The position numbers and the translations under genes were made by a program. 64,000 nt of DNA from Mytilus edulis (taxonomy: Eukaryota). Under the pieces are notes generated by a model that ran no database searches, was not told where the DNA came from, and worked only from the letters and a program-made list of their open reading frames with translations. The DNA is taken from contig NC_092346.1 of the NCBI RefSeq assembly GCF_963676685.1, positions 25,916,001-25,980,000 of the forward strand. Reading direction: 5' to 3'. Positions 25,347 to 55,278 of the stretch are shown here, piece after piece (the first letter of the stretch is position 1; every line of letters begins with the position of its first letter).

Positions 25347-27180
25347 TCAAGAACTGTCTTTATGATCTAACAAAGCCGATCGGATTCCAATTTTCTGTAA
25401 TTCATCCACAAGTTCCCCATTTTTGTGCATCTCCACCAACACATCAGAACCTCCTATGAATTCACCATTTAAATAAACCTGGGGTATGGTTGGCCAGTTA
25501 CTGTATTCTTTTATTCCTGGAATAAAAAAAAGATTAAAAGTTTAAAACCATACATATCATTTTGCATATAGTTATGTTAGTTTGATGTCCTGGCAACCAA
25601 TCACAGACTTTCTGAGACAACTTAACTAGTCTTTTTTTAACAACTAACTCATATGTTCCTGCATATCTTTTTTATGACTAGAAAAGATCTTTGATATTAT
25701 TGTTGGGTAAGGTCAAAAGAGCTACATGTATAATCTGACAAATAAAGATGAGTGGGTCTGTCCTAACATAAGCATGATAAAAATTAAAACCAAAGAAAAT
25801 CAAAGTGATGATCATGGTAATTATTTAAAGTTTGCCAAAAGATCAAAGACATTGCCACAAAACCCATACACATTGTAAAACTGTATACTTGAGTAACATG
25901 ACGGACTATGATAATTATAGGTTTCTCTGTATGTTAAGATACCAGACTTCTTTAACTTTCACATCTAAAAGAACGGATTTTTGCTGCTTTCATGTCTTTT
26001 GTGGTAGAGCAGTATATATAAGGTACAAATGTATTTATATTATACATGTTTATATACATGTACTTTGGATATTATTTCGAAAGCAGTTCAGCATTCTTAT
26101 TCATTATACATGTAATACTGCATCTGAAGTATTATACATGTATATATGTCATACATGTATGTATTAGAGCAATCTTTTTTTTCTGTATATTATATTTAAA
26201 GATGTAGGAAGATGTGGTATGAGTGCCAATGAAACAACTCTCAATCAAAAATAACAATTTATAAAAGTTACCCATTATAGGTCAAGGTATGGCCGTTAAC
26301 ACAGAGCATTACAAGAATAAATTCCTAGGAACCCTCAAATCATATTTCTCTATTTTCTTATAAAATGTATAGAATGAAGTTCTGTTTAGAATCATTGCTT
26401 TTGTGAGATTTTTTTTTAATGAAACTTCAAGATAAAGAGGTATTTCAATCTTTCTGTCACTCTGACTTTGTGTTAATAAAAATAGTTGTAAAAATGCGAA
26501 CCAACATGACCAAGCTAAAGTGTTGTTTTATTTGACTCTATCCTTCTGTCCTGGTATCAGTTAACATTAGTACGAGATGAAGTAGTGTGAGATTTCGATT
26601 GTTGTCGTAGTAAAGCGTAGTAAAACACTACTGGTCCTTGAATAACTTACTTTATTTTTTTATCAATTTTAATTGTTGCATAAGAATGTAATACAAAAAT
26701 TCTAAATTATTGTTAAAATCTTCTTCTTCTTCTTCTTCTTTTGTTACAGAAAACCATAAACGTACTGATGTTTACTTTCCGGCGTATGCCTGGTAAATGT
26801 TTTTTTAATAAATTTTAATTTATGTGAATAATTTTTGTCAAAACATAAATTAACAAAATATTTCTTGTTTAAAGTTGTTTTTGGTCATATATTTTCGTAT
26901 TTTCAAATATACCTTGTCTCAAACTTTCGTCTTGAAGAACATTATGTGCTTTAAATTCAACACCATGCATATTTAGACACTGCACTGCCAATCTGCTAAA
27001 GCCACACATGGGCTGATCAGGGGTGCCCTTCATGAATAAAACAACTTTTTTGTCTTTGACAAGACCGTCAATGTGTTCTTTGCTTCCAGCATTTTGTGAA
27101 TAATATGCAAGAAGACGACAATATGTTGACCTGTTCTCAGTATTCAACAAGGACACTGTAGATCGTAGTAGTCTATTCAT
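25347..27180 (-). CDS. GLRX5: Glutaredoxin-related protein 5, mitochondrial (monothiol CGFS glutaredoxin), 145 aa
   Basis: Exon 1 27180-26913 (MNRLLRS...[17 protein letters not shown]...LRQ) and exon 2 25516-25347 ([25 protein letters not shown]...[10 protein letters not shown]). GT-AG phase-1 intron; Arg/Leu/Ser-rich N-terminus resembles a mitochondrial presequence. Confidence 0.96.
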
Positions 27181-27301: not shown

Positions 27302-30300
27302 ATGACAGAAAAGTTAGAAATAATTCAACAACTTCACATAGCTGTAGAAAATGACAGAACAGATATTTTACGAGCTTTTATATCAACAATAGAGCAAAGT
27401 ATGCATGTTATGATAATCGTCAGAGGGTGGATTCAAAAGTTCTAACATAGCACCAAAATTGTTCTAAAAATTATAACAAACTTTTTTTATAGGTCCAATT
27501 GTAATTTGTGTTTCCTAACTTGGAAAGCTACATTTTTTGCTCTGAGTTAATGAGCAGTGTTCCAGCTAGGCCGTTTTCAGAGGGCGCGGCGCCCGCCCTT
27601 TTTGGAGTGGCGCCCTGTGCCCTTTTTACAGTTTCCAGGGCGCCCTGCCTTTTTTTGAAGATCGATTGCATATTAATTTGCGTATTGATATGATACGCTA
27701 ATTACTAAATTTTACCTGGGGAAAAGATTATGACTTTGTTTACCACCCCCAGCTAATCTATGGTTACAACTGGTGTCATAATCTGTTGTTATAGGTAATC
27801 CGTTTATCGGATGGGTCATTAATGATCATCAACATTAATTCGTTCAAATAGAATCGGTCAGTCGGCAATTATCTTTGAAGAAATGTGCATACAACAACTT
27901 GGGCACAATTTGTGATGTTTACCGTAGTTTCATGGAAGAAACGTAATGACAGAAAGTTGGAAAACCATACACCTTATCACTATTTGTCCGCCATTGCTGG
28001 ATATCACACAGGTTCCCGTAAAATGTTGACGTCATAAAACAAAATATCTGACGCCACAATGGAAAAGTGATTGTTGTTGACGTCAAAAGTTCAAGCGGCC
28101 GGGTCAGCCGGGATTAGCGATAAGGTGTATTATAAACTGGTTGAAGACATTGTTTTACTTGTTTTCTGTAAAATAAACAGAAAATTCAGACGTATTTGTC
28201 ATTGACTGCCTTCATTTTTGATACGAAAATAACAAAATCGGCCACCATATTGTGATCATATTTACATCATATTTACGTACTGTTTATAATCCTCCAAAGA
28301 AGGAGCACACCCGAATATAGAAAGATAACTCAATCTGATTTTTTTCCTAGCATTGAGTAACCCATTTACATATTCTAAAATGTGTCTCCAAACATGTACT
28401 TCTTGCTTAAGAATATATATGTTTAGGTATTTATTTTGAGTTATGGGAAAAGTTAAAGAGGGTCTTAGTAGCAGTGTTGGTAGGGTGCCTTGGTCATCTT
28501 TTTTCTGTATTCTTTATTTTTGATACTATTTTTCACTGTTGCTTTATATCCTAAAATTGTGAATTTACTGAGCACAGCTGTTTTGTGCAGTATTGCCATC
28601 AAGCACAGCAGGGGAAGAAAGGTGAAACTGGTAAAATGTGGTAGACCATAGAAACAGTATGAAACTGATCTCCTTTCAAAACATACTGCATATAAAGTTC
28701 AACTGTGCCAAGCAATGATAAAAAAACTTGTGTGACAAGCTGCTTGACAAGTTTTTCAGCCTTAAAAGTAGAAAGATAGAGTTCTATATGGGCTAAAGAT
28801 GTTGTTCTTGTATAACCTGTGATTCAACGAATAAACACAAATGTTTGATTAACATCTTTTATTAAAATATGCCCTTTTCATATTATCATATCGCGCGTTA
28901 AATGCCCTTTTTCAGGATTGGCACCCTGCCCTTTTGAAAACCTAGCTGGAACACTGATGAGGATTCAAAGCCGATATGTCAGTCACAATGCTTAAATGTA
29001 TGTAATTAGGTCACAGCAGGAACATATATATATTGACCGGACTTGACACTACCAAATAATTTGCAGCCGATTTTATTGTCAGGTCATAGTTAATAAAGAT
29101 ACAATACTGAATCAGACATGTGTTAAAACATACTCGCTATTATCCTAATAATTTCTGATAATATCAATAAAATGTATTTCAAACTAGTTTGATAGTGATT
29201 GCAGTGTATCAAACTTGTATTCTGTCACTTCAAATTTGTTAAAATCACATTCATTTAATCACAGAATGGTAAAGAGAGCATACAGGGTCAAAATAAAATT
29301 GCTTGGATTGCATTCCCAAATTTACAAACCATTATTAAACACTTCACATCAAATAAATCAAACTAATTTTGGTCATTTTATATGACAAAGTATATCTACT
29401 TTATGATAAAACTTGTACAATTTATATACGATTAGAATTATGTGGTTAATTTATTGAGCAGTTCCGATAGTTATTCAGTCGGACGCTTCCAAAATCCATC
29501 AATTTCGCCAAGTCTGGGAGTCAGAAATTTTATCAATTTTATACTGAAAAGCGTATCAGATTAATTTCTTGTTTAAAGATTTAATGTTCCCAGGTTACAG
29601 CTACATTTGTACCTTCCAATTGTCCAAAAAGTAATTGATGATAAAGGCAGCGTTTTCACCACAAAATTTAACCTGTGCATCCGAGAAAGTATTATGGCAT
29701 GGACATGATGGATGAACCCAAATACGTAAAATTTATATGCAATTTATACTTCAGAAAAATTGAAACCTTCCTCAAGTTTTATGTGTATTTTTTTCTAGTC
29801 TGCATAGTCTTTTAGATGGTTAAAAAGATATAAACACTTGCATTTCAATTGATTCTGTCTACCATTTTTAATCGCCTATTGTTTGCAGACATCTTCATGT
29901 ACATGTAATATGTCTATTGTCCTGTATCGTCTATATATTTAATGTTTATCAATACAATTCACTCTATTTATTATTACAATATGTAGAGGGTAGTTCTGAA
30001 ACATCTTTCCCAACCGGTCCAACAATTTACAGAAAAGAGCGACGATTTACAGAAAAGAACCGAAAAGAGCATACATATAAATTATTATTTAATATATATA
30101 CACCAATTTTTCCCCCTCGTAATAAAGGAATGTATAGTTCAAATTTATTTTGAACGTTTATAGGGATATGTAGACTTACAAAAAAAGTTAGATTTCCCTG
30201 AATCAGATTAAGGCATTTAAATATTTAATAAAAAAATCAAAGCGTCATTTTCTTGCTTTAGAAAATAGAATTGTAAAAAACATTTGAATAAAATTTCAAT

Positions 30301-33300
30301 TCCTGCTACATGTAAACCATGGCAGACTTTAAGATGTTCCTGGTTCCTTTCAATTTCTTAATTCAATTTACGGTATAAAACGTTGGGCTACATGTGAATA
30401 AAAGGAGATAAATCAATAAAAAAAAATACATCATTATCTACATATTATAAATGTTGTGCACATCACAGTCATTTCATTTCATATTTCAGGAAATATAGAT
30501 AAATGAATAGCGCACCCGCTTTCGGTATAATTGATAACTGTTTACTCTTTTATAGGTATAGATTAAAGGGTGTGAAAAAGTTAATGGCCTGTTGATTTCT
30601 AATAATTTTATCTTATAAACCATTTAAAACAGCTATGTACATTAGCGAAACGATGTCAGATGGTGATAAAATAAATGTTGGCCTGTGCTAGTATATGTAT
30701 CTATTGAGAAACTTGTGCATGGAGATAGCGGGACTTTTCCTTGAAGAATTCAAATCCTTGACAGGTTTAATGTGTCAAAGTAACAATTAATGTGTTTTCA
30801 TTTAACATGTAAGATCAGGGTAGGAATGGGGGTACCTTAATGACGTATAATGGTAAAAATTCTAACCAAAGACGTTAACGATAATTTTTAGTGAATGACG
30901 ATAACATGTACACTTTCTTTTAGACGATAAAAAAATCAGCTGAATTTGACAAATCACGCTATTTTTACCCAAAAATAACGGTAACGATAATTATTTAAGA
31001 CATCGGACGAATCACGGTAAAAAATTATACATTTGACGCTTACGGTAGCCGAAAATGACCGTTTGACGCCTGACGGTAAAGGGCATTACCTCCCTCATGT
31101 AATACACAAACACAAAAAAAAGAACGAAATATTCGTATTTATTCAATAACTACTGTAAAGTTTTCCGTCACGATATTTTGTTTTATTTTGTTTTTTGTCT
31201 GATTGTACGAATGTCCGTGTTATTATATATTCACTGATGAATTGAATATATATACACATTCCAAAAAAATATATATAAGGAACTGTTGTAATGTTCGAAA
31301 TGAATTAGCGACAGAGATTGGACAAAATAATGACACTTAGCTTATAAATACAATTAACGTAGAACGATTGTTTGACAGTAATGAATAAATATCTTATATG
31401 TTCTTGTCTGTTCTATGTTTTCTATTCCATAAGTTAGGCATCCGACCCTACCTATAATTTTTCACATGTACAGTAAGTTATTATATGCAGTCCTGTCGCA
31501 GTATAAGGTTTAAAAACCTAATGATAAACTTTTGTCAAAAATATCCTTTCATTTTTAATAGACTTAAATAATTTGCAATTTGCTAATTTTCTTCGATTAC
31601 AAAAAACGTTGATCTCCTTTTCGGTTCTTTTCGGTCCTTTTCGGTTCTTTTTGGTCCTTTTTGGTCCTTTTTGGTTCTTTTCTGTAAATCGTCGCTCTTT
31701 TCTGTAAGTTGTCGAACCCTTCCCAACTTTTTATTTTTTTTTGCAGGAACAATTAAAATACACATAAAAATCTGTTCAGTTTTTTTATATTTTGAAAAAT
31801 GTACTTAAATTTTATTCATCGTGGTCCAGCCATGCCTTAAAATGTTTCACAGGTTTTTCTATACTCAGAGTATAATTCAGGGTGTAAAATATACAGCCAT
31901 ATTTGAAGAAATGTTATGATGAACCTTAACCATTTATTTCTGTCCTCGGGTCATCTGGTATAACTCATTCATGAAAAACAACTCAAGATTTGTCAATATC
32001 ATTGGATTTTTCATTTTTTGTCTTGCCTTCATGTTGAATAATATTTGATAAATTTCTGTGAATTTTCAATTTATGTAGCAAAAATTAGGTATTTGATTTT
32101 TTTTTTAAATTTGAGGATGTAATTATCATTTTCATAAATTTTCAATTAAGAACATGAATGGAAAGTTTAAAACTTATTATATATTTATGATTTATATATA
32201 ATTATTATTTACAATTTATTTTAGATGATGACCATCATCAGGTGATATCAAATGTACTGAACAATTGTTACCATGACGATGGCACATTACTTCATGTTGC
32301 TTCAAAGGTAATTTATTTAGTAATGCTGTCAAGGTATATTTGTTTCTTCTAACAGAAGTTCCCCTGGAACCTTTGATATAAACAATACAATAATATCTGT
32401 CCACTTAGAACTTCTGTTTCATGACAACACTATGTAAATCTTACTTCTCCGATATTATTACATTGTATTATCATGTAACCTTTAAGGGTTTGACTTAGAA
32501 AAAAGTTTTGGATTGATGAATTATTCGTGTAATGTTGTCAAAGTAATCAAGTAATCAAGCTTAGGGCTGTTTCTAGGGAATTATATTGTGAAATAACAGA
32601 TGATTTCTGAAATGATTATTTGCCATTAAATATGAAATAAGAAAATCATCTATGATTGTCAATGAAAAAAATACCTTACAACATCGTCCAATTGAAGTGA
32701 ATACGAGAAACTATAGGTCACAGTACAGTCTTTAACTATCAGAAACAAAACTTTGCCATATAGTCATAAAACCAACAGCCTGATCTATGACAAAATAATT
32801 AATCAAAACAAGATATGCCCTTTTCAACAAGCAATAAGTACAAGCTCTAGGACTAGAAACTTTTACATGATATTTCAAGATGGAAGAAAAAATAAGGATA
32901 AACAAAATTCTCTAATCTAAATGGCTGATATTTTTCTAGTCACAAATTTGCATTATATATATGATTTATAAAAAAAAGATAAGATAAAGGAATTTTGATT
33001 TAAAATCTGACTCTTCCAAAACAAATCATGAGAAAAGTATGCTTGTGTCTAGAGAATAAGAGTTGAAAAAGATTTTGTCAGACTACAAGTTCATTTTTAA
33101 AACAAATGTTTAATGAGATCATGTCAAGTTACAAAATACATTTAAATTTGAATTACAGCTAGGAAAGATAGATGTAGTTAGGACCTTATTGTCATCTGGA
33201 AGTGATCCTGGTATCCACAACTCCTATGGTAAAACAGCAGTGGACTTAGCAGCAACACATAATATTACAAAAGTCTTTAATGAAGAACTGTTACAAGCTG

Positions 33301-36300
33301 CAGCACAGTCTAAGTATATAAACAATTTAACTTTAAATCCTGAACAATATTCAAGCAAGGCAATCCATTAAGGTGGTACATAACACTACAGAGAGAGAAC
33401 TCTGTAAAAATTAGCTAAACTTTTAATCACATTGTATTGTTAAGGAAATATTAAGCTTCGCAATGACCATAATAAGTGTTTGTCAAACTGCTATATATGG
33501 AATCATTTTTTCCAATAATGTATCTGGTTCAAGATTTTGAGATTTTGATATTTTTGTTAAACACGTCAAAGGGTCGAAGTAAATATTTTGTCAAAATTTT
33601 ATGAAAATTAAACAAATTAATTTTAGTCAAGGTGTTTGGTACCACCTTAAATTGTATTTTATATGCACATTTGTCTGTTTGTACATAGTAAATTTTATTC
33701 ATGATCATGATGTCATGTAAAAAAACAAAAATTGTTCTTGTGGAATTGGAAACAATTCTGAGGTAAAGTCTTCAGGAGCTACATATCTTTAAACAATGTT
33801 GATTTTATTATTTAAATTTTTGATATCTCTCTTGTCTCTTTTATAAAACGTAAACTTAACTAACCCGTTGCTAGATTTTTTTTTATTACAAATGTAGTAT
33901 GTTGTAATTGTTTCAGTGTTGGGAGAATTTGTCAGTTACTTGCAGCAGGAGTAGATGTAAATTTGTACGACAGTGAAGAAAGTAAAAGTACTCCTCTTCA
34001 CTGGGCTGCATCATTTGCAAACAGGGATATCATCCAGTGTTTATGTGGTGAGTTTTGAGCTTAGTTTAAGGACAAATGAAATATATTGCATTAGCTTTGT
34101 TTATAATGCCACCAAGTGGCATTATGTTTTGCAGTCTGTGCACCCGTCCGCTTGTTTGTAAGTTTGTTTGACTTCAGGTAAAAGTTTTTGGTCAAGTAAG
34201 TTTTTGATGAAGTTTAAGTACAATCAACTTGAAACTTAGTTCACATGTTCCCTTTTATATGATCTTTCTAATTAGAGTTTAGAAAATGATAGTGTGAGTA
34301 GGGTATGTGTGTATTATCGACACATTTTTGTTTTAACTTAAAATTTACAAGCTATTTGAAGGATTAAGGATTTTCATGAACTACATGACTATTTGCTAAC
34401 CACAAATATATTTTCAATAATAAAATATCCATGAAATTACAATTTTCCATGGAATAAATTGATATTTCTTACTATGTTTATCAGATATTCTGAGTGTTTT
34501 TTATGTTTGCTAGACTACTTAATTAAAAATGTTATTGTCTGCTTAAAATAGCTAAATATTTCATATGTCTTCATAGCAAGAGGTGCTGATGTGAACCAGA
34601 TAAACAGTCAAGGTTACACTCCATTACATGATGCCATTAAGAGAGGAGATGTTGAGGTCATCACAGAGTTATTGGCATATGGTGCTGATTCATCACTTAA
34701 TGTCACAGCTGGGTAAGTCACAATGGCAACAACTAATCTTTTCAATTTTTCATGTATGGCGTATGCATTGAAAACCACATTTTGTGTGAAAAAAAGAAAA
34801 CTATACCATAATATGCTCTCAGATAAGACAAGAACAAATGGTGTCATCTGACTCGTTTTTTTGCTACACAATAAACTAGGGAAATTCACAACACATTCTA
34901 TTATAAAAGTTACTTAATCTTGAGTTATATTGGAATCAATTCTCATTAATTGCTTTATTTGTACAGTCTAACCAAGAAAGACTTCTTGCAGGAAACTATA
35001 CTATTTAGATGGGTATTTTAAAAAGTTAGTTGTATTTACAGTAAATATCATTATGACGTCATATATAAAACACACCTGATTCAACCAGTTATTTAAAATT
35101 CTTTGGATTGTCTATTACAGCAAAGATGAGGGGAAAACGTGCAAAGATCTAGCTGGAACTAGGAAAGAAATAATCCATGCCTTAGACAATCCTCCACCAC
35201 TTATAAATATAGAAGAAGAATTTGGTAAATTGCCAGTCTTATGATTTTATGCAAATTGAATTTCTTATTTTTTTAATTGAAATAAACTATATCTATTGAG
35301 AAACCTACAACACACAAAAAAAAGCTAAAACAGAAAAGTTAGCAATTGTGTTGGATTTTTTTTTCATCTATTACATGTAACTTTAGCACCAAGACAGTGA
35401 AAGTTGATTATAATTGTCATTTCTGTACAGAATGTTACAAGAGGGGATACCTATTGCATTTCAACTGATTTTAATCCATGCATTTTAGTTTCAAGCTGAT
35501 TACAAGACTCGTTCATCCTTAACTTTGAAGTTTTTATAATGTAAAAAGATATATATTTTTTTTTGAGATTATGTGTACAAGTAACCATTTTTTTAAATTT
35601 TTGTCATTTCTGCAGATTTAGGAAAGCTGTCTTTGAAAACTGACATTGGAGCTAGTACCGAAACAATAGGAATGAATGGAACAGCAGCTAATGGATCAGA
35701 ACCAGGATCTCCTGAACTTAAAACTCCTACATTTATGGTAGGTACTGCAGATAGCCATGATTGGATGAAGATTGATTGAATGGACAATACAAACTTAAAT
35801 TGGGAGCATACCAGTTAAAACTTAAATGGGTTTTGAAAAATTAAATTTTCAATTTCAATGACTAAAGAATTATATATGTCATATAATGAAACTGAACAGA
35901 AGATTAAATTAATTTTTGCTTTATACCTGCATAGTTTTTGTTTTAAACCTTAAAAATTCTTTGTTTAGCTCTTTTAAGATAGCATCAAAATATATTGACC
36001 CTATAAAAAAAATGCTTGACACATGAAAGATTTCTTGTATTTTATGGAAAATAATGATGGGAAGTTGTCAACATATTATCTGGTAATTAAATATGAAGAC
36101 AAATTAAATCACTGTTACTTTGAAAGGTTACATAAATTATAGAAATGTTTTTAATTTTCCAGAAAACTGTATCATTTGATGACATGATCCAGCCACCACA
36201 CCCTGTTGTTACTGAAGAGAAACTAAGCTTGTTATGGCCACAACCACAGAGCATGCTGCAGCAAGAAACAAAACCTTTTGTCATCCGTCATCACCTTCCT

Positions 36301-39300
36301 GTATATGTCTCAGGGGGACCAGCTGAAAGTAAGAAACCAGCTTATTTTCAATTTTTCAAATGAAAGCCTCATTCCTTGCTTCAGTGAGAAACAATACACA
36401 GTTATAAAATTACAGTGAAATAATTTAACTGACTATTTCTACAGTTATATATGTAGTAAGGAAACAAATTAACATCAATACAAACTGTCAATCATTGAAT
36501 ATTGAAACCTGTTTTTGAAAAATTCTCGTATCTTGGATATTCATTTTCATATTTATCTATGTAAATTAAAAACTCAATTAGCAAAAAAGTGCAAATTTTC
36601 AAAGAGTTCTTTTTGAACCCTTTACTGAATAATTACATGTTATAAAATGAATTTTTTACCCAAACAAGTGATTTGATATCTACACAGATTCAACAAAAGT
36701 ACCTACGCACAAAATCTTGATCTGCAATGAAATTCTCGTATCTTGGATCTTCATTTTCATATTTATCTATGTAAATTAAAAACTCAATTAGCAAAAAAGT
36801 GCAAATTTTCAAAGAGTTCTTTTTGAACGCTTTACTGAATAATTACATGTTATAAAATGAATTTTTAACCCAAACAAGTGATCTGAAATCTACAAAGATT
36901 CAACAAAAGTACCTACACACAAAATCTTGATCTGCAATGAGAATTATTATCATTTTAGATTCCATACAAGTAATGAAGATTGTAAAGATGAGAAAACCTA
37001 GTTTTACATCATTGGGTTTAAATGTGTCAATCAACCTCCTGAGTAGTCTGAGTGATACAAGAGTACCACATCTACAATGTCATGTCAATAACAGATTGTG
37101 TCCAGGACATGGGTTGTACAAACTAACCATATCTCAAGGACAGGTCAGTGCTGGAAAGGTCAAATTTTAGGAAATGTACAAACTCATAATATCTCAAGGA
37201 CAGGTTAGTTCCTGAAAGGTCAAATGTCAGGAAATGTACACAAATTATCTATATCACAAGGTAATTGTAAGACTAAAAACTGCATTACAAATATCATTTA
37301 TTATACTCCAGGGTTCAAAGGTTGCAACAAAGGTTTTAAAATAACCATGTTAGAGCTTAACAGCCATTAACGGTTATAAAACTGTATCTAAAGACAAGTT
37401 TTACTGGTTTCAGGCTGAAACATTAAAATTTTACAGTCTTAAGGTTTTCAAGCTAAAATAGAATATTAAACACATCTGAAGGATCCAAATTATACTTAAT
37501 GTTCTGTGTACTATTTTTTTCAGATAAAAATGTTATGTAGTGATTACAGCAGTTTACATTGTGCCATATCTACCGTGTATCAGCTGATGTCATTGTACAA
37601 AGAAAATGAGGAAATAATTATACCTGGACTATTGGTAAGTATTTCATAACTCAGTAACTATTGGTGGGATTGTTAAATATAATGATAAGATGGTTATACA
37701 AGATATCATTAGTTTGTTGTTGTTTTTTTAAAATTCTATATCCTTTTGAGAGCATAGTACAATGATAAGGATAATTATATCTAGTTCTCCCATGTTAAAA
37801 TGTAAGATTTCATGTTTCCTATCAAAAGTGAGCATGTTGGAGATTTTCAGTAAAAACATTATAGGTGTCAAAAAAGGGCATACTTTGTTCTGATAAGTAA
37901 TAAAATATCCTTATTTAAAGCTTACATTTGAATTGTAACTAAAACGATGAACAACAATGAAATCTAGCATGACTTGAAATGAAATTAATTGAGAAAATTT
38001 AGTTATTTTCTCTCTGTATTAATGACCTTGGCTGTTTTCTGCTCTTTGTTCTGGTTGTTGTCTCTTTGACACATTCCCAATTTTCAATTTTATTAAAGAT
38101 CATGAAGATTTATAGAAAATAAAACAAGACAGAACCAGTGACTGTGAGGTGTCTATAGTTTCAAGACATATTTGTATTTTTTCTTTCTTCTTTAGATTGA
38201 TGATTGGCCTGACCTACACTACAGAGGAGTTCTGTTTGATGCTTCACAAGGACGATTACCTAACTTTGTAAGGTTTTTTTTATACTGTGGATTCATTATT
38301 ATTCGTTGGATACCAATTTTCGTGGATTTCGTGGGCACAGTCAAACCACGAAATTAAATATTCAACGAATGATAATTTTTCTATAGGTTTGTATGCAGAC
38401 TTTAGCAAAACCACGAAATTAAATATCCACGAATATGCAAGTTTTTCTTAATCCACGAAAATTGGTACCCACGAAAATAAATGAATCCACAGTACTTAAT
38501 AATTTATTCTCATCATTCTAAAAGGAACTTAAGGCTACATGATTTATTTAACAGTTTTAAAAATCATCTTTATTTGCTGAAAGATTTATAAAATGGTCAG
38601 ACACAAGATTTACCTATGAGGTCTCTTTAAATCATTTAATTAAAGCAATATGAATAATAAAGCATGCTAATATAATGTTTATGAATTACAATTTTTAACC
38701 TATAACTTCATAGGAATCTTTTCTCAGAGTAATCACTGCTTGAAATTCTTATTAACCTATTAAAAGATAAAAAAATTTATACCTTGATATGCTTTTACAG
38801 GAAACTCTGAAGAGAATGATAGACACCTTAGTAGGACTTAAAATCAATATGGTAAGGTCAATTACAAATGCACTTATCTGTATTACTGAAGACCCAAATA
38901 CTAAATATAAACCTACTTATCTCCACATATACTTTATTTTGCATTCAGCAATTTTAGCCACCTTTGCAATAGCACGTCAAAAGATACCAGAGGGACATTC
39001 AAACTCATATGTCTATTCTAAACTAAACAGACACACCATGTCTAAAAAAAAGGAAAAGACCAATAGACAAACAATAGTAAATAAAACTCAACATAGTAAA
39101 CTATAGACTGATCAGCACAAACCCCACCAAAAACTGGGGGTGATCTCAGATGCTACGTAAGGGTAAGCAGATCCTGCTCCACATGTGGCATCCTTTGTGT
39201 TGCTCATGTTATTATTAACTGGGTAATGCATGTAATTAGGGTACAGTTATGACATTAGGAACATATTCATCTTCATCTGTGTAATCAATAATTTATATTC

Positions 39301-42300
39301 CTGATTATCTTAATTCTTGACGAATTTTTATAAAGGAAGATCAAATGTTTAATCTACTCATGAAATTAAATTGTTCATGAAAATATGTTAGTTTGGAGCA
39401 TTAAAAAACAACAAGGATATATAAGGAATGTATTTATATTGAAAAATTTATACTTCTTTTGTAGGTTCAGTTGTTTTGTAGGTTTTTGAAGACACAAGGT
39501 TGGCAATTAGGATATTCCAAAAGGTACATTTATATTCTATAGTTTAGAAAAAAAACATTTTTCCATTAGTCTTGTTAGGGATTATTTCAAAACCATTCAA
39601 CATAAGAAGAGAGAAAAAAGAATTTATGTATAAGAAAACAAATTCAGTACAATTAATTTATGATATACTTAAGTGTACCATATGATATTTATCTGTGGGA
39701 TTGAAACTACCAATACAAATAAGTCCTTTTGAAGTGTAATTTTGGGTTGCTGTCTCAGTTTTATTCACTCATACCTATCTTTTTCTATTTACAGTGAAAT
39801 AATGGATTTGGTAGACCATTGTTCTGATCTGGGTATACAGTTAGTTCCTGTTTTAGAGGTGGCGCCACAGGTCCAGTTTGATGAACTTGATGATATATAC
39901 TCAACTATTGAAGATTTTATGACTTGTTTTACAGATAGCCAGTAAGTTTGCCTTGCAGGATAGAGTTTAAGCTACTTATATCTATCAAGCAACTATCTTT
40001 TCTGTGAAAACTTAGTTAAACGCAATCTAAACACACGAGATACAATGAATATGCCTTCCTCCTTCATTCATCTCTTACCTGCTGATATTTTATTTTATTT
40101 AATCACCACTGAGATTTGATCAAATTCTTTTTGAACATTTGATGAATTTATTGGATTTTAAATTTTAAATGAAGAAGAGAAAAAGAGAGAATTTAGAAAC
40201 TTTTGTATTTTATTATTTCTAGAGATTGCAAAAAATAATACATACATTTGACATACTATAATTATACAATGATATGATAAATTAATTATGTTGTGTATAT
40301 TATGTTTTAGGTTTGTGAGTTTAGGTCCACGATTGAGTAGTTTTGTGATTGATACAGAAAATAATGTGTTAGATGTGACTGACGCTGTGAAACTTTTACC
40401 TCTACGCCATAACCAAATTCTCAATATATGTGGTTATCCATTACATGGGATGGACTCTGAACTGTTAATCCACCTGCCACCAGATGTTGTCATTAGTGAA
40501 TATGGTATACAGGTATGGCAAATTGTAATCTATGATGTTGAATTGACTTTTTTTCTAGAGTGAAAAAGAAACAAATGGATATCATGACATAAGTATAAAC
40601 AGAAAGGAGTCGGTCCGGTAAGGACCGATTTCGGCCTCAAATTTCTGGTTCATCTGACGAAAGATTTTGACCACTTTTTATACGACCGCAAAATTTGAAA
40701 AATTTTTCGTCGTATATTGCTATCACGTTGGCGTCGGCGTCGTCGTCGTCGTCCGGCGTCCGAATACTTTTAGTTTTCGCACTCTAACTTTAGTAAAAGT
40801 GAATGGAAATCTATGAAATTTTAACACAAGGTTTATGACCACAAAAGGAAGGTTGGTATTGATTTTGGGAGTTTTGGTCCCAACATTTTAGGAATTAGGG
40901 GCCAAAAAGGGCCCAAATAAGCATTTTCTTGGTTTTCGCACTATAACTTTAGTTTAAGTTAATAGAAATCTATGAAATTTTGACACAAGGTTTATGACCA
41001 CAAAAGAACGGTTGGGATTGATTTTGGGAGTTTAGGTTTCAACAGTTTAGGAATTAGGGGCCAAAAAAGGGCCCAAATAAGCATTATTCTTGGTTTTCGC
41101 ACTATAACTTTAGTTTAAGTTAATAGAAATCTATGAAATTTTGACACAAGGTTTATGACCACAAAAGAACGGTTGGGATTGATTTTGGGAGTTTAGGTTT
41201 CAACAGTTTAGGAATTAGGGGCCAAAAAAGGGCCCAAATAAGCATTATTCTTGGTTTTCGCACAATAACTTTAGTTTAAGTAAATAGAAATCAATGAAAT
41301 TTAAACACAATGTTAATGACTACAAAAGGAAGGTTGGTATTGATTTTGGGAGTTTAGGTCCCAACAGTTTAGGAATTAGGGGCCAAAAAGGGACCCAAAT
41401 AAGCATTTTTCTTGGTTTTCGCACCATAACGTTAGTATAAGTAAATAGAAATCTATGAAATTTAAACACAAGGTTTATGACCATAAAAGGAAGGTTGGTA
41501 TTGATTTTGGGAGTTTTGGTCCCAACAGAATAAGGGGCCCAAAGGGTCCAAAATTAAACTTTGTTTGATTTCATTAAAATTGAATAATTGGGGTTCTTTG
41601 ATATGCCGAATCTAACTGTCATGACTGTGTATGTAGATTCTTAACTTTTGGTCCCGTTTTCAAATTGGTCTACATTAAGGTCCAAAGGGTCCAAAATTAA
41701 ACTTAGTTTGATTTTGACAAAAAATGAATCAGTTAGGTTCTTTGATATGCTGAATCTAAAAATGTACTTAGATTCTTGATTATTGGCCCAGTTTTCAAGT
41801 TGGTCCAAAATTAAACTTTGTTTGATTTCATCAAAAATTGAATAAATGGGGTTCTTTGATATACCAAATCTAACTGTGTATGTAGATTCTTCATTTTTGG
41901 TCCTGTTTTCAAATTGGTCTACACTAAAGTCCAAAGGGTCCAAAATTAAACTTAGTCTGATTTCAACAAAAATTGAAATCTTGGGGTTCTTTGATATGCT
42001 GAATCCAAAAATGTACTTAGATTTTTTATTATGGGCCCAGTTTTCAAGTTGGTCCAAATCAGGATCTAAAATTATTATATTAAGTATTGTGCAATAGCAA
42101 GTCTTTTCAATTGCACAGTATTGCGCAATGGCAAGAAATATCTAATTGCACAATATTGTGAAATAGCAAATTTTTTTTTAATTAGAGTTATCTTTCTTTG
42201 TCCAGAATAGTAAGCAAGAAATATCTAATTGCAAAATATTGTGCAATAGCAAGATTTTTTTTTAATTGGAGTTATCTTTCTTTGTCCAGAATCAACTTAA

Positions 42301-45300
42301 ATCTTTGTTATATACAATATACAATGTATATTCACTTTTTACTACCAACTGATAAATTATAATAAATAACATTCAGTGATAACAAGCAGTTTTTTTTACA
42401 TCTTAATATTTTATGATGTATTTAAATGAGTAGTTATTGTTGCAAACTCCATTAGAAATTTTAATTGAGATTAGTTTTGGAATAAGGGAAAGGGGGATGT
42501 GATTAAAAAAATTGGGTTCAATTTTTCTCATTTGAAATTTCATAAATAAAAAAGAAAATTTCTTCAAACATTTTTATGCCCCACCTACGATAGTAGAGGG
42601 GCATTATGTTTTCTGGTCTGTGTGTCCGTCCGTCCGTCCGTCTGTCCGTCCGTTCGTCCGTCCGTCTGTCCCGCTTCAGGTTAAAGTTTTTGGTCAAGGT
42701 AGTTTTTGATGAAGTTTAAGTCCAATCGACTTCAAACTTAGTACACATGTCCCCTATGATATGATCTTTCTAATTTTAATGCCAAATTAGAGTTTTTACC
42801 CCAATTTCACGGTCCACTGAACATGGAAAATGACAGTGCGAGTGGGGCATTCGTGTACTGAGGACACATTCTTGTTTTGAGAGGATTGATATTCAACAGC
42901 ATAGTGAATTGCTCTAAGAGAAAACAAAAATTTTAAGTTCATTAGAACACATTCATTCTGTGTCAGAAACCTATGCTGTGTCAACTATTTAATCACAATC
43001 CAAATTTAGAGCTGAATCCAGCTTGAATGTTGTGTCCATACTTGCCCCAACCGTTCAGGGTTCAACCTCTGCGGTCGTATAAAGCTACGCCCTGCGGAGC
43101 ATCTGGTTAAACACTTTAGTGATTATTTCATTTCAATCAATTAGTTTATTTGAAAGATTTTGACTGAATTAGTCATTAAAAACAATCCGATTCAAGCTCA
43201 AATATGAAAAATCTACCAAGTATGCCGAAAAATGTCACTTTTCAGATGTTTTTTTGTCAAAAATGAAGTGGCCCTATCCGTGTTTATCCTCAACCTTTAT
43301 ATAAGTTATGTATTATCATCAAATACAACTTACATTTCAAGATTAAGGATGAACATGAATGTGGTGCGGTCACTTTCGTTTTACACGAAAACCGTCTAAA
43401 ATTTAACTAAAATGCTAGAAAAGTGAAGATTTCAGTAATTTAGAATGACTTAATGGTGCTAGTACCCGATATATGTGCATTGTATTGCCAAAAACAGGCC
43501 ATATGTATGTAGCAGAAGCATTCTTCTGTCCAATTAATAACTAAAAGTTTCCATTTTAACAATTTTGTAAAACTGCTAAATTTTGGGGCTAAAAAGGGGT
43601 CTTACTGGACCTTTCGGTATGCACAAGGTTTTCAGAATGTCCTGTCTTGATGCTGAATGTTTGAATATTTAGGCAAAATAGATTATTTAAGTGTTTCTTA
43701 AAGACGAGTAGCAAGTAACTAAAATTGTAAAAAATAAAAAGAAATAAAACTTTGGAATTTATAGAATAAGTTTACCTAGAATGACAAAAGAAATATAACA
43801 GGTTTGTTAACTAGCACAGTCTATTAATTATCCCAGAAACTGTAAAAACCATTAACTGGATATCTGGTATTTTTATTTTGTAGGCTGATTATGATTTCCA
43901 GAGATTTTGCTCACCATTGTCCAGTCATGGGTAAGATTATACTTTCAAATGAAACCATGAATCTTGGAAGTACAGGCATCTTAATTTATTCTTTTTAGTT
44001 TTGTTTTTGTTATCTGTGTTTTTATTGTTTTGAATTTAAGCTGTTTATTAACATGCTTGCATTGAGTGTACTTTGCTTACTGATGTAAGTCTTTTGACTT
44101 ATTTGGTGTTCATTTTATGTTTTATCTTTTGTTGTAAAAGTTGAAAATATAGTTAAAAGAGATCACCAAAGATTTGCTTTTTCAAATACAAAAAATAAAT
44201 ATTGTCAAACCAAACTCAGATAAAATATCAATCTTTTCAAATTTACCTGAAATAACAGAAATCAGGCTAAGTTCAAAAAAATATAAGAAGATGTGATATG
44301 AGTGCCAATGAGACAACTCTCTATTCAAGTCACAATTAGTAAAAGTAAACCATTATAGGTAAAAATACAGCCTTCAAAATGAAGCCTTGGCTCACACTGA
44401 ACAGCAAGCTATAAAGGGCCAAAAAAATGACAAGTGTTAAACCATTCAAACAGGTAACCAACGGTCAAATCTATATAAAAGTCAAGAAATAAAAAACACT
44501 TATGAATCACATCATCAAACGACAAACACTGAACATCTGATTACTGACAAAGTGTGAATTTATAAACTTAGGTTACCACATATTTTCAACAAAAGTTATT
44601 TATTTTTTCTTAAGACTTTTATTTTATACTTTCAGGATTAGTTATATAATGTGTCCAGGAACTTCAGCATGGAACAGGTAAGGCACATATAATAGAATGT
44701 TATGAAAAAGAATTCCCTTACTTTATGCAGAATTTTTGGCAACTGGTCTTGTTAAGTTTAATTTGTGCTAATCTGTTTAATCTGTTTAAAAAGTTAATAA
44801 CTGTTAAAGTTTAAAAAGGTAAATGAAACTTTGGTAACATTTCCAGCCTATGTTGTCGTAAAGTCTTCCAAAGTTGTGATTTATGCAAACTTTTATAATA
44901 CTGTAGAAACATTAACTATAGTGGGGTTAAAATTTCGTGGTTTTGTCTCTATATAAGATTTTATTGTAATTTAATAATGTGGTTTCCATTAAATTGAAGT
45001 GATTAAATATGTAGGTTAAAGTTTCATTATGGTTTTAATTTTGTGGATATATTCTTTTCATGAAATATTCAAACTACAATCATCTATGAAAATTTCTGCT
45101 TTTACAGTATTATTGAATTTGTTCTTAAAAAAATTAATTCAATGGAACATATTTTCTTTACTTGTATCATATTTTACCAGTACACGTACCACAAATAATG
45201 ACGAGCATTATTACACACCAACTTTTATGCATAGATATGAAATAAAGTCCTACAAAATTAGCAATATTTTAGTAACAGGGTTAACATCATACATAATAAA

Positions 45301-48300
45301 GAAAACACATTATTTTATATTTCAGTTTAGCAGGTTGTCCTGAAGCAGCTATAAATAACATTTTTAGCGCTGTAAAATGTGGGGATGCCCATGGTGCCCT
45401 AGGGGCAATAGTCTGCAACTGGTCTGGTAAAGGACATTTAACACATTTACCATTTGCCTGGCCTGGCATACTTGTACTTGCCGGATTAGCATGGAATTCT
45501 GATTGTCACCAGGTAAATATATTAAACCTAAAAACCCTAGCTAGCCTTGTTCTTTATTATTTGAAGCCTGTTTATCTCAAATGACCATGTGAGCATTTGA
45601 TGGAAAATCTTTATAAATTGAAGGACCAAATTTGGAAATTTCCTCAATGTTTATATAGATCTATATAAATATTTAATTTTGAGTATTTTTTAAAGGCCAT
45701 CATTAGATTCCTTTTTGAAAGTATTCCTGAAATAATTTTAAAATATTTTCAATCTTTTTTTTGAAAAAAAATGTTATGAAAATTCTGAATGAAAGTAGAG
45801 GGTCTTCAAAATGAATACCAGTAATCAAATTTCTTCTAAGAATTGAATTCTCTTGCAGTAATTACTGACTTAGTGGTATAAATTTGCAAATTATGTTTCA
45901 CTATTATTGATATTAAACTTTTTATGTGTAAATTTTAAACATTGAATTGAAATATTTTCAGGATTATTTATATAGCAATCTTGGGGAGCTTTTAAATCGT
46001 CACATTTTTAAGGACACCACAAATACTATTGGTCATGTGATTGTAGAACTTGGTCGAGCAGAAACATATCTTATACGTTGTTGTAGAGGACAAGCAGGTA
46101 ATTATCAAAATTATTATGCATCTTGAGATTGATTTTTTTTTTTCAAAAGAAATATAAAAGTTTAGTTAAAATGAGAAACATTGCATTCTCTTCAATGGTT
46201 TCAGTGTTGTGTGAGCATTATTTATTTCCAGAGCTAATTTTAAAGATTTGGGTGATTTTGCTGCATTTTGTTCATCTTTGAATAAAATGGATATTAAATG
46301 AAATAAACTATGGTGTAGAAATTATACAATAAAGGTAAGAGTTGCAAATAAATGTGATCACATTTAAATTTTCAGAGTTAATTTATTTTTTACATGATAA
46401 AATGTTAATCTTTTCTAGGAGGAGATAGTCAGAAATTACCAGATGAACATGGATCAACATTATTTCAATTCTTCTTTAATCCTGATGCAGTGCCTATAGA
46501 ACATTTGACACCTGAGGCCTTACAGGTAATTATCTCCCTTGATGATTTTATTTTGCTGCAGTTGTCTCCCCTTTTGGTTTGAATTTTAATCCTGATGCAA
46601 TACCTATAGAACATTCAACACCAGAGGCCTTACAGGTAATTATCTCCCTTGGTCATAAATATTCATCTTTTTTTTATTCTGTAGTTGTCTCCCCTTTTGT
46701 TTTGAATTTCAACTCTGTTGTGGTGCCAATATTGCTCTCATGTAATTAATTCCTTATCTTATTTATTAGAAGATTTTTTTTAGGTATTATATTCATTTCT
46801 TTTTTTAATTTACATGAAAGAAAGTGGTACTCCTTTTGTGTTTAAGTATTTATTTTTTGTTAGACTTTTTCAACCATTTTAAACAGCTGAACTTGTAATG
46901 CATCTGAGTTATTTCCCTTGAACATAAGTTCTCAGAAGTAAAGACAGCTTGTCAGTTTCATATTAATTTTGAGTCCGTTAACATCCATTCAAATGAATCT
47001 TCAGCTAGACTCTCAATTTGATAGAAATACTGAATTTATATAGAAGACAATTAGAAAGAAAGAAAGTTTAAAGACTTCATTTGAATTTTAATTTTCTTAC
47101 CACACCTTTTCAGTTTCTTCCATTCATTAGTAGTAGAACCAAATAATTTGAATTAAAAAACATATCCATTTGAGCTCATATTGTTTGTTGCTGTACAAGT
47201 AAAATGCAGTTTTTTTGAACATGTGATTAATAGTATGATTCATATACATGTATATATTTTTCATGTGCATGGTAAATTTTGTTGGTTATTTGGTGAATCT
47301 TTTTTTTCCAGAGAAGTGTCCGTCATTTGAAGAAATGTCAACAAGAAGTGCTCAAAATAAATTTAACCTGTAAAGACGGTGAACATATAAAAAAGGAATT
47401 GAGTCTAACCTGTGATCTTATGATATTTTCTGCAAGGTAAGAAAGGATTTTAAGTATATCCACTTCAATTTTTAATATTTCCTGGTAAAAATACTTAAAA
47501 TAGTCGGTAGTATCTAGGTAAATGTAGGTTAGTTTGTTCTGATTTTTATGCCCCACCTACGATAGTAGAGGGGCATTATGTTTTCTGGTCTGTGTGTCCG
47601 TTCGTCTGTCCGTCTGTTCGTCCGTTTGTCCTGCTTCAGGTTAAAGTTTTTGGTCAAGGTAGTTTTTGATGAAGTTGAAGTCCAATTGACTTCAAACTTG
47701 GTACACATGTTCCCTTAATATGATCTTTCTAATTTTAATGCCAAATTAGAGATTTTACTCGAATTTCACGGTCCACTGAACATAGAAAATGATAGTGGGA
47801 GTGGGGCATTCGTGTCCTGAGGACACATTCTTGTTATGCTTGGATTCAGTTTGCATCATATAATACATAAAAAAGATAACAGGAATAACCATGATACAGG
47901 ACAGTACAACTGACCACATCAACTACTAAAACCTAACAACCAACTTCTCCAGAAAAATGGAGGTTCAAAAAATTGCAACGAAACAAATAATATAAAATTG
48001 ATATTACATTTATGACAAAGCATTAAAGATTACATTGAGATTTTATGATCTGATTACAAATCAACAATACAGTTATATTTAGCAATGGAATGTTTGCTCT
48101 TGTCACTTGATATTTATTTATCGCTTTACCATTTAATGACTCAATGTATCCAAGTGTGTATTGAAAATAAATATTAATAAACTTGAAAATGGAAATGGGG
48201 AATGTGTCAAAGAGACAACAATTGTCCATAGAGCAGACAACAGTCGAAGGCCACCGATGGGTCTTAAATGCAGTGAGAAACTCCCGCACACACAGGAGTA

Positions 48301-48944
48301 CTATTTCACTTTATATTTCTTTTTCATTGTAGAATTTGTAAATCCTTGTTACTGGCTGGTAAGAACCCAATGGCTGGACATGCTGGTTATGCTGTAGTTA
48401 ACCTAGGGGTCAGTAATCTTCCAGCTACAGTCAAAACAGATCTGGCGAATAGGTTAGTAGTCTACAGTGAAACCTGGCTGTTTCTGGAAATGCAGGTTAA
48501 GAACCGAGCAGATAATATTCAGCTGTTTACTATTTGTCTAGAAAGCAGTCAATTGTACAGAGATTGTAGAAAATAAAACTTTTTGAAAATTAAATGCTGT
48601 TCTAATCATAATAATTAAATTTATCGCATCACATCATATTATTTTAATTGATTATTTACTTTGTGATCAAATTTGAATGTGTGCAAATATAATTAAATTT
48701 AAAAAAAACATGTGCATTGTATGGTCAAATATTTGAGTGTAATTTATCCAGTAATTTTGATTGCAGGTTATTGGAGTTAATGGAACCATACAAAGAAGTA
48801 TGGCACAAGAGATATGTAGTTAACGTAGGTTTGTCGGAGTCAGTAGGAAAGTTACAGAATGTGTTTAAACTATTGGTACCAGGGAGTGATTCAGAAGGTC
48901 TTATGACACAGCAAAACCATGACGACCAAGTTCAACATGTGTGA
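27302..48944 (+). CDS. Ankyrin-repeat + GH20 (hexosaminidase D/GcnA-like) domain protein, ~920 aa, probably catalytically inactive
   Basis: 23 phase-compatible GT-AG exons, 2763 nt in total: 27302-27398, 32225-32307, 33159-33313, 33917-34047, 34577-34712, 35121-35224, 35616-35737, 36163-36328, 36959-37143, 37524-37634, 38196-38267, 38801-38851, 39465-39523, 39795-39941, 40311-40512, 43884-43930, 44636-44677, 45326-45512, 45962-46097, 46419-46525, 47312-47436, 48333-48452, 48767-48944. Ankyrin motifs GTLLHVAS, GKTAVDLA, STPLHWAA, GYTPLHDA. GH20-like motifs LWPQPQ, IDDWPDLHYRGVLFD, LKINMVQLF, GIQLVP, CPGTSAWNS, NWSGKGH, AGLAWN. Confidence 0.88.
27555..28956. mobile_element. Non-autonomous hAT-like DNA transposon with 5-bp TSD, in intron 1 of the ankyrin-GH20 gene
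   Basis: Perfect 16-bp TIR CAGTGTTCCAGCTAGG (27555-27570 / 28941-28956); ATGAG at 27550-27554 and 28957-28961; repeated subterminal GCCC motifs. Confidence 0.85.
27970..28127. mobile_element. ~160-bp MITE nested in the hAT-like element
   Basis: Inverted ends CACCTTATCACTA / TAGCGATAAGGTG (1 mismatch), flanked by TA on both sides. Confidence 0.75.
30015..31719. mobile_element. Non-autonomous TIR element with 8-bp TSD and subterminal tandem repeats
   Basis: ~50-bp inverted ends (ttacagaaaagagcgacgatttacagaaaagaacc); TTCCCAAC at 30007-30014 and 31720-31727; (TTTT(C/T)GGT(C/T)C)n array at 31618-31680. Confidence 0.8.
33372..33646. mobile_element. MITE with TTAA TSD and GG termini (Kolobok-like)
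   Basis: TTAA|GGTGGTAC ... GTACCACC|TTAA. Confidence 0.75.
36521..36940. repeat. 210-bp intronic tandem duplication
   Basis: Units start at 36521 and 36731 (aattctcgtatcttggat...) with few substitutions; ends just upstream of the exon 9 acceptor. Confidence 0.9.
38283..38494. mobile_element. TA-flanked MITE (Tc1/mariner-like)
   Basis: TACTGTGGATTCATT / AATGAATCCACAGTA inverted ends and internal CCACGAA repeats; diverged relatives at 49718-49926 and about 44899-45110. Confidence 0.85.
40675..43108 (+). mobile_element. Helentron-associated non-autonomous element (HINE) carrying internal satellite-like arrays
   Basis: T-tract insertion site; subterminal IR TTATACGACCGCA / TGCGGTCGTATAA; (GTC)n microsatellite; about five ~160-bp tandem units at 40770-41540 plus a second array at 41540-42070; 3' stem-loop gctacgc-cct-gcggagc. 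Confidence 0.85.
42571..42875 (+). mobile_element. Short HINE nested in the larger HINE
   Basis: TTTTTATGCCCCAC start, internal inverted GGGGCAT, (GTCC)n microsatellite, 3' GTGGGGCAT plus hairpin gtgtactgaggacac; near-identical to 47543-47835. Confidence 0.85.
47543..47835 (+). mobile_element. Short HINE, second copy
   Basis: Same structure as 42571-42875; a decayed third copy lies at about 34095-34330. Confidence 0.85.
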
Positions 48945-50368
48945 TATAGGCAGTTTCTTAGCAACAAAACCATGAAGGTCAAAAGTCAGCATTTCTCAAC
49001 CAGGGAATAGAATCAAATCAGAAAAATTCCAATTTTCGATTTAAGAAATTTGTAGTATTTTCTAAAGTTTATACAAAAATGTTGTGATTGGTTCAAAAAG
49101 TCCATAAACAATTTATTGATATTCATCCAATTATTCAACTTCTTATTTTTAATTTTGGGAACCAACAAGGAAATTAACCATAGTCCTTTTGATCCTAAAC
49201 TGCAAATTGTTGCAGAATTTTAGAGGGCGAGGACAAATGTTTTGGGTGTGGTATTTAAGAGGTAAAAAAATGAGGATGTGGGATATAGGGGGTTAAAACG
49301 TTGGGATGTGGGATTAATAAAGATTGATTAAAATCTAATTGATTTGCAGGGGTTTCTGGATTTTCAGATAAGTTACAAGATTTTTTTGTCATTTCGCAGC
49401 TTAGTTATGTTAAGTATTGATCAAGGAAACTGAATATTGGTAGTTTCATTCAACAATAAACTGTTAAAGATCAATCCTAACTTGTATATTTTATTTGGCC
49501 TTTTTTTGGTTTATTTTACATTATGTATTTAGTCTTCCATTTGTACAGTTTTTAAGTTATTTAGGTTGAAAGAATTAGTTTAGTTGCTTGGTCTAATTCA
49601 TAGAAAGTCTAGTATCAGGTGCTTAATAATTAATATATTTATTTAGGGTTTTATTAGTTGTTTTATTTGGTTGTTTTTTTTATTTATAAAATCCTGGTAA
49701 CATTTTTTTAACAAACGTACTGTGAATTTACTATTATTTGTTTCATACCATTTTTTGTGGAGCTTGTGGGTTTATCTACCGGAATATATATATCTATATA
49801 TGGATGAACCATAAAATTAAATATTCAACGAATCCCAAATTGCCTATAGGCTTGTTTGCCATACTGCGAGATTAAGTTTTCTTTAATCCACAAAAATCGG
49901 TTCCCACAAAAAAAAAATTCACAGTAGTGTGTTAACAAAAATTACTTGGTTTCCAGTATCTGTATTAATTTCTGTATGTACCTGAAACAAGGATATATAA
50001 ACAAACCATTGGCTGTGAATTGTAATGCTTTTGTTTTGCTGAATATTATCAAATTTTATTATTCATTTAAGTTGTTTACAAAAGAAGTCCAATAAATACA
50101 TTGCAAGTTGTAGAGATTTTTTTATTTGTTAATGATATTATTTTGTTATACATTTGTTACTTTTTTGTATATTTTTTATTGCTTATATTTTAACGAGGGA
50201 CTATATTGTTATGGATGAGTATATTGAAATATAGTGTTATATGGTCATGTCTAATGGGTAATCTGATTTAATTGTAAAACTGAAATGACAATCAACAAAA
50301 GTCATGAGAGCATTGCATCATTATGATTTTTAAACCAACATATTTTGCATTAAGCTCAGATGTATTAA

Positions 50369-54758: not shown

Positions 54759-55278
54759 CATTTGTACTAGTGCCTGTATATACATAAAAGGTTCATCATA
54801 ACAAACGGACAAATATGGTTGTATTTACATGCCAAAAACTCCTCTGAGACTTACCTGTCCAGTTGGAAAAGTTTTTTAATGCCTGGCATCCACTAGATAT
54901 ATAAAAGTTAAATGCATTTTATGTTTCAGAAAGATAAAATCTCTTTTCGATATTAATGGGCATTTTTTTTTCTTCATGCATAAGGTGTGAAAATTAACTA
55001 AGTTGTGGTACAACTTTGAGATGCTCCCTAAGGTAAAAACTTTTGACTTGCATATAAACTTAACTATTTCTTCTGGCATTGTCAAACTGTCACTCTATTG
55101 TAATTTACAAAGATTCTGAAATATTTGCTACTGGTCATAAAACAAAAAATAATAAATCCATAGAAATAGTGAAGCAGTCAACCTGATAAGCGTATAAAAC
55201 CCATGCTAAGAGAGCATGTTGACTGAAATTTTTAATTATAAATACTGAGTTTAGAACTGTCAGATGAGTATATGAAGG

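Follow-up and report, generated by a model that had tools for sequence, protein, structure and literature searches.

Does a gene that joins ankyrin repeats to a glycoside hydrolase family 20 (GH20) domain still encode a hexosaminidase, and if not, what might its product do? The question is raised by a stretch of 64,000 nucleotides of the Mytilus edulis genome (contig NC_092346.1, positions 25,916,001 to 25,980,000 of the forward strand; referred to as the window), where the span 27302-48944 (+) encodes such an ankyrin-GH20 protein. An earlier note on this DNA had proposed a cytosolic pseudoenzyme that senses N-acetylhexosamines (HexNAc). We find that the mussel protein is a member of the GH20 fold lineage but does not qualify as an active hexosaminidase, and canonical GH20 activity has very probably been lost. 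We assign a probability of about 0.6 to the reading that this intact protein without catalytic pair would be a scaffold in the cytosol that has no catalytic role and binds proteins instead of HexNAc. That is, the pseudoenzyme and its likely cytosolic location stand, while HexNAc sensing as the leading function does not, most of the recognition residues being replaced.

Active GH20 enzymes need the motif H-x-G-x-D-E after strand 4 of the barrel. In the mussel protein, the respective segment reads SLGPRL (40318-40335, +; within FVSLGPRL at 40312-40335). A profile alignment to intact homologues places G-x-D-E onto G545-P546-R547-L548, i.e., R547 occupies the Asp slot and L548 the Glu slot, with a helix predicted from P546 onwards. 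At the end of strand 3 (PVLEVAPQV, 39847-39873, +; VPVLEVAPQV at 39844-39873), the G-H motif is lost and the loop that follows is about 35 residues shorter. The absence of both motifs and the short loop had been suspected before and are borne out here. We assessed their extent in an alignment of 74 full-length rows (A3), in which nameless rows were assigned to the bilaterian type by sequence and tree. None of the 62 bilaterian-type rows carries an acid at either catalytic slot, and in 59 of them the Glu slot is occupied by Leu. Counted from P509 to G545, the segment is 34-42 residues long in these 62 rows compared to 69-74 in 5/6 choanoflagellate rows; the Monosiga equivalent has 35 residues, in a record that looks gapped. 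An alternative acid pair near strand 4 was considered and rejected, since D554 is kept in only 26/62 rows and position 556 is variable.

The loss is not an artefact of the gene model. The coding span comprises 23 exons separated by GT-AG introns only, with 920 codons plus stop and 0 internal stops, as had been read from the open frames. Its spliced product shows 0/920 differences from XP_071159297.1 (Mytilus edulis) and 3 to 32 differences from five other Mytilus records, and the length of 920 amino acids (aa) recurs in six other Mytilus records. Mytilus records were also what a search with exon 18 retrieved. All exons lie on the forward strand with AG/GT boundaries: exons 1-8 at 27302-27398, 32225-32307, 33159-33313, 33917-34047, 34577-34712, 35121-35224, 35616-35737 and 36163-36328; exons 9-16 at 36959-37143, 37524-37634, 38196-38267, 38801-38851, 39465-39523, 39795-39941, 40311-40512 and 43884-43930; and exons 17-23 at 44636-44677, 45326-45512, 45962-46097, 46419-46525, 47312-47436, 48333-48452 and 48767-48944. 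Among the GH20 landmarks, LWPQPQ is found at 36232, IDDWPDLHYRGVLFD at 38196 and AGLAWN at 45480, while YKLTISQGQI and CPGTSAWNS each cross exon junctions.

Transcript support rests on the spacing of exons in contigs; read placement is dominated by intron repeats and exon depth is low. The contigs stem from run X1, whose RNA status is presumed, and run X14; none of the listed runs is on record as RNA. In X1 contig record 3, the gap from exon 9 to exon 15 is 443 letters, which equals the modelled exon sum exactly, and in X14 record 9 the gap from exon 19 to exon 23 (351 letters) equals the modelled spacing. For the transcripts behind those contigs, a missed exon supplying HxGxDE is therefore excluded. 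Furthermore, exon 15 contains the strand-4 segment and exon 14 most of the shortened loop, and the 920-aa length of the six other Mytilus records likewise speaks against such an exon. A decaying pseudogene is ruled out by the stop-free frame and by the barrel being the least changed part of the protein. Contigs continue past exon 23 and read starts of run X21 pile up at 50172 and 50199, which marks 48945-50200 (+) as the likely 3' untranslated region. Intron 15 harbours a high-copy repeat block (about 40590-43650) that contains tandem units of roughly 130 bases and is very deep in all four runs examined.

Next, we consider whether the fold is intact. The ankyrin array is encoded by exons 1-6 (27302-35224, +; aa 1 to ~225) and forms five to six helix pairs according to Pfam and secondary structure, in line with the about five repeats proposed earlier. 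It is followed by a poorly conserved linker from exon 7 and the start of exon 8 (35616-36210, +), within which aa 233-286 are predicted to be disordered with a predicted local distance difference test (pLDDT) below 50. GH20 domain 2 (36217-38207, +; aa ~295-434) was delimited by a Glyco_hydro_20b match and HH-align, and the GH20-type (beta/alpha)8 barrel without catalytic residues (38208-45512, +; aa 435 to ~700) by model, fold searches and profile alignment. A C-terminal helical bundle completes the protein (45962-48944, +; aa ~700-905). The AlphaFold2 model, built from 49 sequences, has a mean pLDDT of 88.9 and a predicted template modelling score (pTM) of 0.71, and it contains all eight barrel strands (439-445, 471-478, 506-513, 541-544, 576-580, 599-605, 625-631 and 663-668). 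Pfam reports Ank_2 (E 3.6e-26) and, below cut-off, Glyco_hydro_20b for aa 300-434 (E 0.002), while the Glyco_hydro_20 catalytic domain has no Pfam match in the mussel protein. Glyco_hydro_20b is above cut-off in orthologues, and so is Glyco_hydro_20 in those from Tegillarca, Antedon, coral and choanoflagellates.

Both fold searches are topped by the streptococcal enzymes GH20C (PDB 5ac5, 5a6b) and GcnA (2epk, 2epn), which share with the mussel protein the succession of domain 2, barrel and C-terminal bundle (Foldseek E 8.7e-18; best Z 24.3 with a root-mean-square deviation (rmsd) of 4.0 over 494 aligned residues for GH20C; Z 23-24, rmsd 3.5-4.1, ~490 aligned residues and 12-14% identity for both). 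Unlike the mussel protein, they have no ankyrins and carry the D222-E223 pair as well as a full -1 subsite. In addition, 573 columns could be aligned with the profile of 25 intact homologues that have no ankyrins (probability 100, E 8e-102), and the ESM Atlas yielded GH20 clusters plus the arthropod cluster of the family itself, and nothing else. HEX-2 of T. suis (8qk1; GH20 subfamily 1) shares barrel and helix bundle (Z 22.8, rmsd 4.0, 362 aligned), with the match beginning at the barrel (model residue 436). In contrast to the mussel protein, HEX-2 and human HEXD are active enzymes with HxGxDE and no ankyrins described. HEXD is nucleocytoplasmic according to the accessible part of PMC11308363.

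For the mussel protein, we take a cytosolic location to be likely because its N-terminus is not hydrophobic and is followed by ankyrin repeats. By a crude test, its best 12-residue mean hydropathy is 0.83, which agrees with the signal peptide having been judged absent, and only 1/74 family rows reaches 2.0. Some orthologues are named tankyrase. Tankyrase combines a SAM and a PARP domain with five clusters of ankyrin repeats; the mussel protein has about five to six repeats only and no SAM or PARP Pfam match, such that this identity was rejected.

How old is the fusion, and when was the catalytic pair lost? A homology search with the GH20 core yielded 57 proteins, and 31/140 further representatives match the core profile. 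Bilaterian members come from molluscs, nemerteans, a priapulid, chelicerates, insects, a springtail, a copepod, a centipede, nematodes, a crinoid and amphioxus, and non-bilaterian animal members from corals, a jellyfish and two sponges. No vertebrate or dipteran names are among the named matches, from which we claim no absence given that the searches were not exhaustive. Ankyrin-bearing relatives are found in Salpingoeca, Monosiga, Hartaetosiga, Barroeca and Diaphanoeca. Among relatives without ankyrins, prokaryotic and environmental proteins prevail, and one is from Physarum. Outside the holozoans, the closest intact relatives are a Physarum protein and prokaryotic ones that share 36-48% identity with the choanoflagellate query.

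We computed an IQ-TREE phylogeny from 36 selected rows over 518 columns of the core, i.e., without ankyrins, without loops 3 and 4 and without HEXD, rooted by choice on one environmental protein. Choanoflagellates (support 100/99), animals (100/100), both together (98/96) and bilaterians (100/99) form respective clades, and the animal stem is long (0.65). The nematode, Oscarella, Rhopilema and other long or partial rows, which were left out of this tree, fall inside the animal group in a FastTree phylogeny of 114 rows (six partial rows dropped). The choanoflagellate proteins PTSG_02041 (S. rosetta) and MONBRDRAFT_28983 (M. brevicollis) have the same architecture as the animal proteins and belong to their sister clade, but, unlike the mussel protein, keep [HN]VGLDE and the pocket residues. 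Outside the choanoflagellate-animal clade we observe P0307, a eukaryotic transcriptome protein with ankyrins and an intact NVGLDE. Given this placement, the ankyrin-GH20 fusion may be older than the holozoans.

With regard to the catalytic motif, HxGxDE is present in 111/114 ankyrin-less homologues, and [HN]VGLDE is kept in all seven ankyrin-bearing matches of two homologue searches. Within the choanoflagellate clade, 7/8 ankyrin-bearing proteins keep the motif, while Diaphanoeca reads G-F-G-E. The clade members P0279, P0086 and P0087 have no full Asp-Glu pair, which suggests independent decay outside animals; Diaphanoeca and two choanoflagellate-clade proteins being without the pair, repeated decay is likely. 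For the non-bilaterian animals, the pair is found in 0/5 rows of A3, where the two slots read D-L in the coral, S-A in one row, D-Q in Sycon, P-N in Oscarella and D-D in Rhopilema; the equivalent of Trp266, a tryptophan of the acetamido pocket, is kept in 4/5 of these rows. The Asp-Glu loss first noted in the mussel extends to all bilaterian-type rows.

We regard this pseudoenzyme family as real and conserved, and apparently it has not been described before. A literature search, which did not reach supplements and most subscription journals, found no published description of it and no study of the choanoflagellate ankyrin-GH20 proteins. Also, the word 'ankyrin' has 0 occurrences in the main text of the GH20 phylogeny paper PMC2492878, to which this statement is limited.

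Next, we studied what is left of the sugar-recognising pocket. The -1 subsite of GH20C is formed by R94, D222, E223, W266, W306, Y308, W373 and D375, with W339 near C6, as given in the accessible part of PMC11308363. The positions of the Arg, the Asp-Glu pair, Trp266 and Trp306 are tied to solved GH20 structures by alignments. At the position of Arg94, which binds O3, the mussel protein has Q448, and Arg is found in 7/62 bilaterian-type rows. Trp266 is replaced by C580 (Cys in 55/62), and Trp306 corresponds to Y604 (Tyr or Phe in 57/62). The carbonyl-binding Tyr308 is replaced by I606 (Tyr in 4/62, mapped by motif spacing). The strand-8 loop W669-S-G671 (45420-45428, +) keeps the ring-side Trp, while the O4/O6-binding Asp375 has become Gly (51/62). 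In total, two Trp and one aromatic residue are kept while the polar contacts and one pocket Trp are lost. Top and bottom loops did not differ clearly in conservation (means 0.34-0.75 vs. 0.39-0.75).

The barrel shows 2/266 changes between the model and M. californianus compared to 30/654 in the rest of the protein (Fisher p 0.002), and 3 compared to 23 changes for M. coruscus (p 0.049), a test that is not independent of the former. The linker has a mean conservation of 0.29 vs. 0.49-0.56 for the remaining protein. Conserved ankyrin residues outside the repeat core are R19, D21, D65, R68, D130, W141 and R178; from choanoflagellates to bilaterians, R19 is kept in 69, D21 in 68, D65 in 70, R68 in 70, W141 in 71 and R178 in 69 of 73 rows. 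All 74 rows share W301 and D858. The latter is part of the bundle motif T857-D-L-A-N861 (48436-48450, +), which accompanies the ankyrin fusion: 70/74 rows of the fusion family contain T[DE]xAN vs. 3/114 ankyrin-less homologues, two of these three being in the choanoflagellate clade. We infer that ankyrins and bundle form a putative binding unit that predates the loss of catalysis.

These observations can be arranged into the following scenario for a protein-binding scaffold. The ancestor would have been a cytosolic hexosaminidase tethered to a partner via its ankyrins. In animals, tether and fold would have been retained while the pocket was dismantled stepwise, presumably starting with the loss of the Glu, when Trp266 and the long loop were still present as in coral and sponge. 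Later, in bilaterians, the loop would have been deleted and the slots changed to Pro-Arg-Leu. Leu548 together with an Arg477-Glu512 pair might seal the emptied pocket, and one binding unit would comprise the ankyrin array, Trp301 and the bundle's TDxAN motif. By analogy, the mussel protein could work as a Klotho-type pseudoglycosidase whose dead barrel binds a protein. Like YKL-39 (GH18) and Klotho (GH1), it retains a glycosidase barrel after catalysis was lost; in contrast to these members of other GH families, it adds an ankyrin array and has largely lost the recognition residues. Both YKL-39 and Klotho are extracellular. For Klotho, binding of sugar-mimicking protein motifs is described in the accessible part of PMC7828330.

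Several observations weigh against this scenario. Half of the pocket rim is conserved, i.e., the ring-side Trp373 equivalent W669 is kept in 56/62 and the Trp339 equivalent W635 in 54/62 bilaterian-type rows, the strand-7 loop is the most conserved of the top loops (0.75), and position 512 (E512, codon 39856-39858) is acidic in 62/62. R450, which lies near the lost Arg94, is present in 57/62 and might partly substitute for it; a nearby basic residue can do so, as Lys66 does in HEX-2 of T. suis (accessible part of PMC11308363). The equivalents of Tyr308, Trp339, Trp373 and Asp375 were mapped by motif order and strand position instead of GH20C alignment. Rhopilema has D-D at both slots, though without the Gly and four aromatics. 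Furthermore, activity of the choanoflagellate proteins is deduced from motifs alone, and pocket closure as well as the salt bridge were read from alignment and secondary structure only. Finally, the co-occurrence of TDxAN and fusion counts as roughly one event because it is observed among kin.

In a first alternative, the protein would recognise HexNAc, O-GlcNAc or free chito-oligosaccharides in the cytosol, with sugar still bound by the dead barrel and the signal passed on by the ankyrins. The conserved W635, W669 and aromatic at 604 fit this, as does the strong conservation of the barrel, and chitinase-like pseudoglycosidases do bind chito-oligosaccharides (PMC7828330, accessible part). However, the loss of the polar contacts and of one wall of the acetamido pocket argues against the HexNAc reading: the acetamido Trp is mostly Cys, the carbonyl Tyr and the O3 Arg are rarely kept, the O4/O6 Asp is mostly Gly, and the slot of the N2-binding Asp is acidic in 0/62 rows. 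We thus consider such a reader unlikely. Could the pocket instead serve another ligand, be it as a repurposed enzyme or as a small-molecule receptor, via R450, R477, D/E512, C580, C641 and H674, which are fixed in bilaterians? Beside the acid at 512 and Cys580, a basic residue at 477 (52/62) and Cys641 (44/62) are widespread and mostly unlike the active type. But the single acid cannot run substrate-assisted GH20 catalysis, the Asp at this position also occurs in ordinary GH20s (PEIDxPGH) and may be structural, and few of the new residues are common to sponge and cnidarian rows. A repurposed pocket is therefore, in our view, very unlikely.

Pseudoenzymes often regulate active relatives, and GcnA and GH20C dimerise through their helical bundle. 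The mussel protein, whose bundle matches this domain 3, could be a catalytically silent subunit by which an active HexD-like or O-GlcNAcase-like hexosaminidase is regulated or positioned. An exon-by-exon search of the mussel genome, in which only the best candidates were scored, found no close active paralogue, though: exon 18 has a single match in the genome, and the two of five other GH20 matches that were read are both of chitobiase type. We regard a regulatory subunit as improbable to a similar, strong degree. The two chitobiase-type GH20 genes, L004 2070-3011 (+) and L001 1435-1983 (-), have long exons, and L004 keeps PEIDMPGH and HFGGDE intact. That the mussel has further GH20 genes, one of them with an intact motif, fits the scaffold reading.

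Returning to the preferred reading, i.e., a scaffold that binds proteins, the family provides a graded natural series from intact-looking choanoflagellate proteins via half-dismantled coral and sponge proteins to bilaterian ones with deleted loop and Pro-Arg-Leu. With such a series, it becomes testable how a pseudoenzyme arose close to the origin of animals. Pseudoglycosidases as such are an already known kind. Sponges, nematodes, insects, molluscs and amphioxus all retain the gene, yet we found no study of it, which points to an unrecognised conserved cytosolic complex. The database names 'beta-N-acetylhexosaminidase' and 'tankyrase-1' are misleading for ankyrin-GH20 proteins. A wider, doubtful extension would be a separate eukaryotic GH20 lineage beside HEXA/B and HEXD that started as an ankyrin-tethered hexosaminidase of the cytosol in the common ancestor of choanoflagellates and animals, that has been a pseudoenzyme since the animal stem, with corals and sponges as living intermediates, and whose remodelled pocket reads a sugar-mimicking or O-GlcNAc-related partner motif, thereby linking cytosolic HexNAc metabolism to invertebrate signalling.

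Head-to-head with the ankyrin-GH20 gene, the window contains the first exon of a glutaredoxin (26869-27180, -; Pfam E 1.2e-9, CGFS motif), which presumably resembles the mitochondrial GLRX5. Both start codons are about 122 bases apart, an arrangement that suggests a shared promoter. Further upstream, a DIRS-like retrotransposon (11607-15719, -) shows long open frames for a gag-like protein, reverse transcriptase, RNase H with a weak methyltransferase-like match, and tyrosine recombinase, followed by an exon for a von Willebrand factor A domain (19222-19641, +; Pfam E 4e-14). Downstream, the open frames at 55276-55812 (+) and 62493-63794 (-) resemble, as judged by eye, fragments of non-LTR (long terminal repeat) reverse transcriptases.

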